Positions 7,350 to 9,095 of a DNA stretch of 64,000 nt are shown piece after piece. The first letter of the stretch is position 1; every line of letters starts with the position of its first letter. The translations under genes were made by a program, and so were the position numbers. The notes under the pieces were generated by a model. The model ran no database searches and was not told the DNA's origin. It worked only from the letters and a program-made list of their open reading frames with translations. The stretch comes from a plasmid: assembly GCF_055900595.2 (NCBI RefSeq), contig NZ_JBVWEU010000002.1; one strand, 5' to 3'.

Positions 7350-7630
7350 GGTAATGACTCCAACTTATTGATAGTGTTTTATGTTCAGATAATGCCCGAT
7401 GACTTTGTCATGCAGCTCCACCGATTTTGAGAACGACAGCGACTTCCGTCCCAGCCGTGCCAGGTGCTGCCTCAGGTTCAGGTTATGCCGCTCAATTCGC
7501 TGCGTATATCGCTTGCTGATTACGTGCAGCTTTCCCTTCAGGCGGGATTCATACAGCGGCCAGCCATCCGTCATCCATATCACCACGTCAAAGGGTGACA
7601 GCAGGCTCATAAGACGCCCCAGCGTCGCCA
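7350..7630 (-). mobile_element. IS1, about 280-bp fragment from the IRR end (inverted orientation)
   Basis: GGTAATGACTCCAACTTATTGATAGTG at 7350; encodes the C-terminal 88 aa of InsB on the minus strand, identical to the copy at 22079-22342; similarity ends at about 7630. Confidence 0.85.
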
Positions 7631-7639
7631 CGGAAAGAA

Positions 7640-8430
7640 CAGTATATTTTAATGCGGGAGTTGCATGAGCGGTATACGGGAGAAACTATCAGACCATGGG
7701 AGCTACAGAGGTGCTTAAGTCTCGTAACATTATAATCTGCTCACCTGACTGGTGCTATTCTCACCTCAACACCAATGCACAAATAGCCTGGCTTATCGTT
7801 AATAAAAGTTACTCATACCGGGAATCCAGTGAAGCTATGAATGTCGGTTCCTATACACTGGGGGCATGGGTACGTCAGCTCAGGCGGGAACGTCAGGATA
7901 CCACGTCTTCTGCATCACCACTCACATCAGAGTAGCAACGTATTCATGAGCTGGAAAAGCAGGTTCGTCGCCTGGAGGAACAAAAAACGATATTAAAAAG
8001 CTACAGTGCTCTTGATATCCTCCCCACTGAACGGTTTACGATAGTTACCAGACTGAGCGGCGACACACGGTTGTCAGTCTTTGCGCTGCTCTGGATGCTC
8101 ATTGCAGCAGTTCCGGCACTGGCAGAATCGGCTCAATACGATTGATCCGGCGCGAATCAAATTGTATAGCGAAACAGTCCGGGTCTGGAACCAGAGTCGG
8201 GGTTCCGCAGGTGCGCGTGCTCTGGCAGATATGCTGATTCAAAATGGTATCCCGATGAGCAGTTATCGTGCCAGGAGGCTGATGAAGCATCTGAACCTGA
8301 GAAGTGCTCAGCCCGGAAAATATCAGTACAAAAATGCCCGCCAGGAGCATACCAGCCTGCCGAGTCTGCTTGAGTGTCGGTTTTCTGTGCTGGAGGCCGA
8401 GCAGGTATGGATTCTTAAATAAACCTCGAG
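7640..8430 (+). pseudogene. IS3-family (IS911-like) transposase remnant, orfA C-terminus and orfB N-terminus, with frameshifts
   Basis: fragments [12 protein letters not shown]...EQQRIHELEKQVRRLEEQKTILK (orfA-like leucine zipper) and [22 protein letters not shown]...QVWI (orfB N-terminus); no DDE domain present. Confidence 0.55.
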
Positions 8431-9095
8431 TCTGAATCGGTAACCAGCTGTTATATTCTGAATTATTACAATAGCGTCAGGCCTCATAATTACACTGTGG
8501 GTTGACGCCGGAAGAATCAGAGAACAGATACCGTTCTTACTGTAAAACGTGGCTAATATTAATTGAGCACTGCAGTGTTCAGAGCACAAAGAAGAAAAAA
8601 GATGTGTGCGAATGCCTGTAATGTGTTAAAAGAATGTTCCGCGTTTCCGGTACGCTTTTCGTAACTAACAATGCAGGGTGACGTAACGCTGGTTGTGCCG
8701 GAAACGCGTCCCTCCCCCTATCTTTCCTGTTTGGATTTGCCCCTATATTTCTGGATTATCCGACAAAACCGGCGTGAAGTATTACTCTCGTCGCCCAGCA
8801 CCATAAGGATAACGCCCATAAAATCATGAAACTTTTCTTCCAGATTGGATACAATCAGGCCGAAACGGTGATGAATATTATCCAAATCTGATGGTTCGTA
8901 GCGTTTTCAGCCCCCAGATTCTGAGTTGCCTGTAGGGATGATTTCAATTCCCGATTTGTCTATCGCATAGAGAAAAAGAATTTCATTTCTGTTCACCAGA
9001 ACCCATGTAACCCACTCCAATTCGTTATTTATCTCACTGATTGCCCTTCATTTATCTCATTGATGCACCGAAAGGTAAAACTGCCATCCGGTGCA

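Follow-up and report, generated by a model that had tools for sequence, protein, structure and literature searches.

A patch of dead mobile elements just inside the left boundary of an IS1-flanked transposon on a ColV-type Escherichia coli plasmid

The stretch from 7350 to 9095 of a plasmid sequence of 64,000 nucleotides (hereafter the window, whose numbering is used throughout unless another source is named) is a patch of dead mobile elements that consists of a cut-down copy of the insertion sequence (IS) IS1, a decayed member of the IS3 family, and a 20-base tip of IS2. The patch forms the left margin, on the inner side, of an IS1 composite transposon that spans 7350–22357 and sits inside a plasmid gene for serine acetyltransferase. 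The IS3-family remnant and the IS2 tip are inherited passengers that were carried as cargo and do not stem from events at the edge after capture, and the only edge event is what appears to be a 625-bp deletion at the junction 7630|7631. As a whole, this account of a composite transposon with inherited scars and a private later deletion is very probable. The structure is real but ordinary, and it belongs to a well-understood, already known kind. Around the stretch, the window is 100% identical to F plasmids of the ColV type from extraintestinal E. coli, both avian and human, for example pAPEC-O2-211A-ColV. The reference copies of the mobile elements were taken from annotated genomes, namely from the related plasmid L001 for IS1, from K-12 for IS2A and IS911B, and from strain BEC1-S17 for ISEc31.

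The two IS1 copies bracket the cargo with their right inverted repeats (IRRs) pointing outward. The left copy lies on the minus strand and is complete in the related plasmids, while the right-hand copy (19631–22357, plus strand) is inverted relative to it and comprises IS1 positions 1–409 and 404–768. The identical 9-mer TCCTGCATG adjoins both outer ends of the unit. The gene for serine acetyltransferase is split, and the copy at 7341–7349 belongs to its 3′ fragment (~7071–7349, minus strand), while the copy at 22358–22366 starts the 5′ fragment (~22358–22678, minus strand); the two gene fragments are annotated in a related plasmid on the two sides of the unit. Target duplications of 9 bp are typical of IS1. 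Removal of 7350–22366, which corresponds to the unit plus one copy of the 9-mer, restores a single serine acetyltransferase reading frame. The reconstructed empty site is found in 41 E. coli plasmid records at 99.5–99.8% identity over 100% of its length, and an intact serine acetyltransferase is annotated there. The 9-bp duplication, the restored frame, and the empty site are together the signature of a one-step insertion of an IS1 composite transposon.

Tn9 and Tn1681 are known IS1 composite transposons, the latter with inverted IS1 copies. The unit in the window resembles them in its paired IS1 copies around a cargo, its 9-bp duplication, and the presence of the uninterrupted target gene elsewhere, and its inverted IS1 arrangement is that of Tn1681. 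It differs from them in its cargo, a metabolic cluster of ~12 kb with old IS scars and without a resistance or toxin gene. The cargo genes encode a LysR-family regulator, an ankyrin-repeat protein, DUF2877, FdrA, and DUF1116 proteins, a hypothetical protein, and a carbamate kinase. A further difference is that both IS1 copies are disabled here, which makes the unit a fossil. The right-hand IS1 is split at 20039–21992 by IS100, an element of the IS21 family that is accompanied by a 5-bp duplication (CTAAA) and whose istA and istB genes are annotated in a related plasmid; on the chromosome of AR_0085 the same IS1 is unbroken. Because the left IS1 lacks its left inverted repeat (IRL) and the start of its transposase and the right IS1 is split by IS100, the unit in the window is predicted to be unable to move on its own. 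No description of the IS1 unit was found in a limited literature search that did not extend to the original pAPEC-O2-ColV paper.

The contents of the patch can be followed onto E. coli chromosomes. The homology between plasmid and chromosome sets in precisely where the left IS1 ends on its inner side (position 7119 of L001, which corresponds to position 6863 of the AR_0085 copy, L006) and spans ~12 kb into the right-hand IS1; from position 7119 of L001 onward, the identity to the AR_0085 chromosome is 99.8%. The remnant, a spacer of 157 bp, the IS2 tip, and the LysR gene occur in the same arrangement, at 99.5–99.9% identity, on the chromosomes of AR_0085, SLK172, and EC6563. These chromosomal copies have no left IS1, and their DNA runs on into other genes, which in AR_0085 and EC6563 are sodC and further genes. 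The arrangement is also present on eight metagenome contigs. Since the chromosomes carry the remnant and the IS2 tip without the left IS1, both scars would predate the left IS1 in the donor.

This bears on the preliminary description of the window, in which repeated IS insertion and deletion had been proposed at the left edge of a captured segment. The captured segment, its left edge, and a deletion in IS1 are all retained here, but the remnant and the IS2 tip have to be taken out of the list of edge events, as both are present on chromosomes without the left IS1. In its full form, the proposal would have the IS1 stub, the remnant, and the IS2 tip arise from successive insertions and deletions on the plasmid, during or after capture. 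All three are indeed found no more than 1.4 kb from the left boundary, and the truncation of the left IS1 is real. Against this stand the near-identical chromosomal copies, beyond which other DNA follows, and the presence of the arrangement in a lineage that is only 93% identical. The clean 9-bp duplication and the empty site, moreover, imply that the unit arrived in one step together with its contents. A build-up of the patch on the plasmid is therefore very unlikely.

Some of the chromosomal and metagenomic copies show rearrangements of their own. In SLK172 (positions 4841–5016 of L003), an IS911-like left end, 92.6% identical to positions 1–176 of the K-12 IS911B, has recombined onto the remnant at the equivalent of 7832. 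The join falls within a 16-bp stretch that is common to both elements, and the left flank differs and holds a PhoX gene. The case shows that the dead remnant is still a substrate for recombination. In EC6563 (position 5288 of L008), the locus breaks off at the equivalent of 8862|8863, where the C-terminal part of a transposase gene of the ISL3 family follows, and the LysR cluster is absent; in relatives of the window, an ISL3 pseudogene also marks the cargo's right end. The metagenome contig OJIU01001557.1 (L018, equivalent to 8648–9527) represents the 93% identical lineage and carries the same IS2 20-mer. On this contig an IS629-like and then an IS911-like element are inserted at the equivalent of 8647|8648.

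The left IS1 copy is a stub and no longer a functional IS1. It covers 7350–7630 on the minus strand and corresponds to IS1 positions 768–488, that is the IRR-proximal 281 bp of the 768-bp element, at 100% identity to the IS1 of L001. Positions 1–487 are deleted, and with them the IRL and the start of insA/insB′. The preliminary description had also placed the end of an IS1 stub at 7630, and the alignment confirms this. Its statement that the stub is joined directly to the next IS remnant, with no host DNA in between, is contradicted by ~84 bp of single-copy DNA without IS character (7631–~7714) that is continuous with chromosomal sequence in the relatives. This DNA is found at a median of one place per genome, and left of 7791 there are no multi-copy matches.

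At the site of the stub, related plasmids carry a full IS1 of 768 bp, followed by 138 bp that are absent from the window. Compared with these ColV plasmids (pAPEC-O2-211A-ColV was the one aligned), the window thus lacks 625 bp at 7630|7631, composed of IS1 positions 1–487 and the 138 bp of adjoining cargo DNA. The two sides of the join share no microhomology (zero bases). Among the records that hold its right-hand side, neither the 223 from RefSeq (E. coli) nor the 70 PLSDB plasmids show the junction, and it is likewise missing from the six metagenome contigs that extend to position 7631. In all compared records with the right-hand side the match begins at 7631, so that the junction is private to this sequence.

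The junction is best read as a late deletion, with an error of assembly or sequencing as the less likely alternative, under which the plasmid would in truth possess the whole IS1 and the 138 bp. That the join is unique among ~300 related records, that it was formed without microhomology, and that one of its breakpoints falls inside a multi-copy repeat, where assemblers err, would all fit such an error. The other breakpoint, however, lies in unique DNA, 138 bp past IS1, which the simple collapse of a repeat would not give, and the flanks are otherwise 100% identical to the relatives. An artefact at this position is thus considered unlikely.

To the right of the single-copy DNA follows the decayed IS3-family element (7715–8574, plus strand, left boundary ±3 bp), which was delimited by alignments to ISEc31, Pfam matches, and the RefSeq annotation as an IS3 family transposase pseudogene. 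Its parts are arranged in the order of a degenerate left end, an orfA with stop codons, the N-terminal helix-turn-helix (HTH) part of orfB, an internal deletion, and an intact right terminal repeat, and frameshifts are present as well. By blastn, 7791–8410 matches ISEc31 positions 129–752 (77.7% over 624 bp), and 8442–8574 matches positions 1124–1258 (86.7% over 135 bp), up to the last base of the element, where the remnant ends in CA at 8574. The internal deletion of ~370 bp corresponds to ISEc31 positions 753–1123 and removes most of the DDE catalytic core. In agreement, Pfam returned HTH_21 above the cut-off (34.7 bits) and HTH_Tnp_1 below it (16.7 bits), and no match to the rve (DDE) domain was found in the remnant. 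The frameshift motif between orfA and orfB (A6-7G) is degraded, with TTAAAAAGC in the window vs TTAAAAAAGGC in ISEc31. The remnant is a nonworking member of the IS3 family.

The left end of the remnant is too degenerate for BLAST. A direct alignment places 7727–7775 on ISEc31 positions 10–60 with a score of 48, while shuffled sequences scored 18.3 ± 3.4 and none of 1000 shuffles reached 48; the tip of the remnant is therefore set near 7715. The layout of orfA, with its HTH, followed by orfB is thereby collinear with ISEc31 positions 10–752 and 1124–1258. Where a target duplication of 3–4 bp would be expected, the flanks of the remnant (..AGG and GTG..) differ, with the left of these boundaries being uncertain.

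ISEc31 is the closest named relative of the remnant (78–87% DNA identity). The two share the collinear orfA/orfB plan and the right terminal repeat. The remnant is nevertheless too divergent to be ISEc31 itself and has lost the DDE core. A search of E. coli genomes and PLSDB plasmids for a closer intact relative found none, and the best match there stays ISEc31 at ~79%. The remnant had initially been called IS911-like, which is correct for the family but not for the name. IS911 resembles it in its membership of the IS3 family, the two-ORF (open reading frame) plan, left-end motifs, and a weak similarity at the protein level, with 41–44% amino acid identity by tblastx vs 67–69% for ISEc31. At the DNA level, blastn with a word size of 7 and an E-value limit of 1e-3 found no match to the K-12 IS911B fragments, which cover 828 bp of the ~1250-bp element, and ISEc31 is clearly the nearer of the two. 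A true IS911-like left end was found only in SLK172. An Rfam search of the stretch returned a single, subthreshold match to isrC, a small RNA of Salmonella, at 7771–7853 inside orfA (30.8 bits, where the gathering score is 39; E-value 4.8e-4) and nothing beyond it; transposase-like sequence in the Rfam family model may be the source of this match.

The remnant's right end is separated from the outer end of the IS2 tip by the 157-bp spacer (8575–8731), which shares the conservation of the remaining segment. Within it lies a 14-bp inverted repeat (8640–8653 and 8695–8708, 93% complementary) with a 41-nucleotide loop. The 12-mer CCCCTATCTTTC at 8715–8726 is located 5 bp outside the IS2 tip and resembles positions 9–20 of the IS2 IRR (CCCCTATATTTC). 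The likeness may reflect an insertion beside an end-like sequence, or chance.

The tip itself, TGGATTTGCCCCTATATTTC, occupies 8732–8751 on the minus strand with its outer end at 8732 facing left. It is an exact copy of the final 20 bp of the K-12 IS2A (positions 1331–1312) and agrees in full with the 41-bp IS2 IRR, as published, over the first 20 bp of the latter (Lewis et al., PMC3299598). The IRR is composed of a cleavage domain 11 bp long and, further in, a domain that binds protein (PMC3299598), and the 20-mer consequently lacks most of the binding domain. The outermost 20 bp, with the whole cleavage domain among them, are identical to those of IS2, whereas positions 21–41 are replaced by unrelated DNA, the body is gone, and there is no partner end. 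From 8752 onward, on the body side, no similarity to IS2 was detected at a word size of 7. The 20-mer had already been recognized in the preliminary description. The comparison with the IS2 termini bears out its sequence, and the statement that no IS2 body is attached holds locally, with nothing IS2-like following the 20-mer. Its position had been given as 8723–8742 and is off by 9, and its distance from the remnant, given as about 300 bp, is 157 bp when counted from the right end at 8574.

The 20-mer is a genuine orphan end of IS2 and represents an old scar. If it were not derived from IS2, it would have to be a chance match or the end of another element that shares the IS2 tip. The match is indeed only 20 bp long, the bases that follow, TGGATTATCC, bear a loose likeness to the tip at 8 of 10 positions, and the window holds IS2 variants with 95% identity to the K-12 IS2. 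But the match is exact over 20 of 20 bases and stops precisely at the terminus of IS2, and it occurs once in the window, where 0.02 occurrences are expected by chance even with up to three mismatches (the BLAST E-value for any 20-mer of IS2 is 4.8e-4). A close isoform of IS2 would be indistinguishable over 20 bp and would leave the reading unaffected. An origin outside IS2 is accordingly rated as highly unlikely. Short extensions that reach into the flanks of other IS2 copies were discarded as a selection effect among 19,146 places.

The tip would have arisen by the insertion of IS2 and the subsequent deletion of its body together with adjoining DNA. A chimeric query made of the flank (8582–8751) and the IS2 interior, designed to detect a whole IS2 at the 8732 site, retrieved no record that covered ≥80% of it. 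Copies of the locus without the 20-mer were sought with a gapped pattern (N{0,30}), which gave no matches in species-representative genomes; the same pattern matched eight metagenome contigs, all eight with a 20-bp gap.

A truncated variant of IS2 is also present at 3742–4820 (plus strand) and corresponds to IS2 positions 1–1079 at 95% identity to the K-12 IS2. At 4820|4821 it runs directly into an ATP-binding cassette (ABC) transporter ATPase frame, of which the C-terminal part with the LSGGE signature and Walker B is present, and the fusion as a whole covers 3742–5292. The RefSeq annotation of a related plasmid merges the two parts into one "IS3 family transposase" pseudogene. It could be asked if the orphan tip at 8732–8751 and this copy are the two parts of one IS2 that was parted by an inversion or another rearrangement, given that it is precisely the right end that is missing from the truncated copy and that less than 5 kb separate the pieces. 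However, the two are oppositely oriented, and IS2 positions 1080–1311 are nowhere in the window. The tip lies inside the composite transposon, whereas the truncated IS2 lies outside of it in the plasmid backbone and is joined to the ABC-ATPase gene fragment instead of cargo DNA. The tip is also found on chromosomes and metagenome contigs that do not have the left-hand region of the plasmid. A common origin of the two pieces from one IS2 copy is extremely unlikely.

It is just as hard to credit that the tip is still active, that is recognized in trans by the IS2 transposase as a decoy end or as a preferred landing site that seeds rearrangements beside the cargo genes. In favor of such activity, the tip keeps the complete 11-bp cleavage domain plus 9 bp of the binding domain, and the IRR-like 12-mer of the spacer is only 5 bp away on its outer side. 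It is also unchanged in the lineage whose surroundings have diverged by 7%, which is in part an artefact of the search, as the pattern demanded an exact match. Scans of the scars for promoters and terminators found sites that are no commoner than in shuffled controls. The scars are located downstream of the convergent LysR gene, and they show no sign of function, so that they are probably without one.

Taken together, the following course of events is proposed. The donor chromosomal cluster would already have held dead fragments downstream of the LysR gene, namely an ISEc31-like element without its catalytic core, the IS2 tip, and a piece of a Mu-like prophage end. At the IS2 insertion, a deletion would have taken the rest of the element and neighboring DNA and left the outermost 20 bp. 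The IS1 composite unit would then have transposed whole into the gene for serine acetyltransferase on a ColV virulence plasmid of the F type, making the 9-bp duplication. After capture, and in the lineage of the window only, the 625-bp deletion would have stripped the left IS1 of its inner 487 bp and the cargo of 138 bp, which would have created the junction 7630|7631. While the boundaries, the sequence identities, the duplication, the empty site, the chromosomal homologs, and the restriction of the deletion to this sequence are observed directly, we infer the order of these events and the direction from chromosome to plasmid.

Several points weigh against this course of events. The 625-bp deletion is known from one sequence only, for which an error in the source assembly is conceivable. 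The chromosomal copies are themselves located in IS-rich islands, and "chromosome" thus denotes the donor context, without a statement on where the DNA ultimately came from. For its left boundary, the remnant depends on a single alignment of a degenerate end. Neither an ancestor with a whole IS2 at 8732 nor a copy without the 20-mer was found in the searches above, for which reason the insertion of IS2 and its later deletion are proposed here rather than observed. The 5-bp target duplication of IS2 is not recognizable at the tip, as the element has lost its other end.

The DNA to the right of the IS2 breakpoint leads up to the first intact cargo gene. The 165 bp at 8752–8916 have no assigned identity and are found only in this context, save for a weak match of 111 bp (73%, E-value 2e-7) inside a DNA methylase gene. 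Pfam searches with the small ORFs of 8671–9020 gave subthreshold noise only. The adjoining 144 bp (8917–9060) share 89.7% identity with the end region of a prophage remnant, Mu-like and with Mor, gp16, and DUF2786 genes, that abuts a truncated gspL in ~100 E. coli genomes. They contain tandem ATTTATCTCAYTGAT motifs, end 35 bp downstream of the LysR gene, and are probably an end fragment of a transposable phage and thus a further mobile-element scar. The possibility that 8752–9066 constitutes a mini Mu-like element with both ends was rejected, as the genomes that carry the Mu-like prophage match 8917–9060 alone and at one place each. The LysR-family regulator gene (9096–10025, minus strand), identified by its ORF and by the L001 annotation transferred by offset, points its 3′ end toward the scars.

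The importance of these findings beyond bookkeeping is limited. They provide a route by which a chromosomal cluster of the fdrA/carbamate-kinase type would have come onto ColV virulence plasmids, that is by a single IS1 composite transposition into a backbone gene, and the exact boundaries and the 9-bp signature can be used to track this module. They also call for caution, as IS fragments beside a transposon boundary may be inherited cargo and not traces of capture. As a feature private to this sequence, the 625-bp deletion could serve to mark the lineage of the source plasmid.

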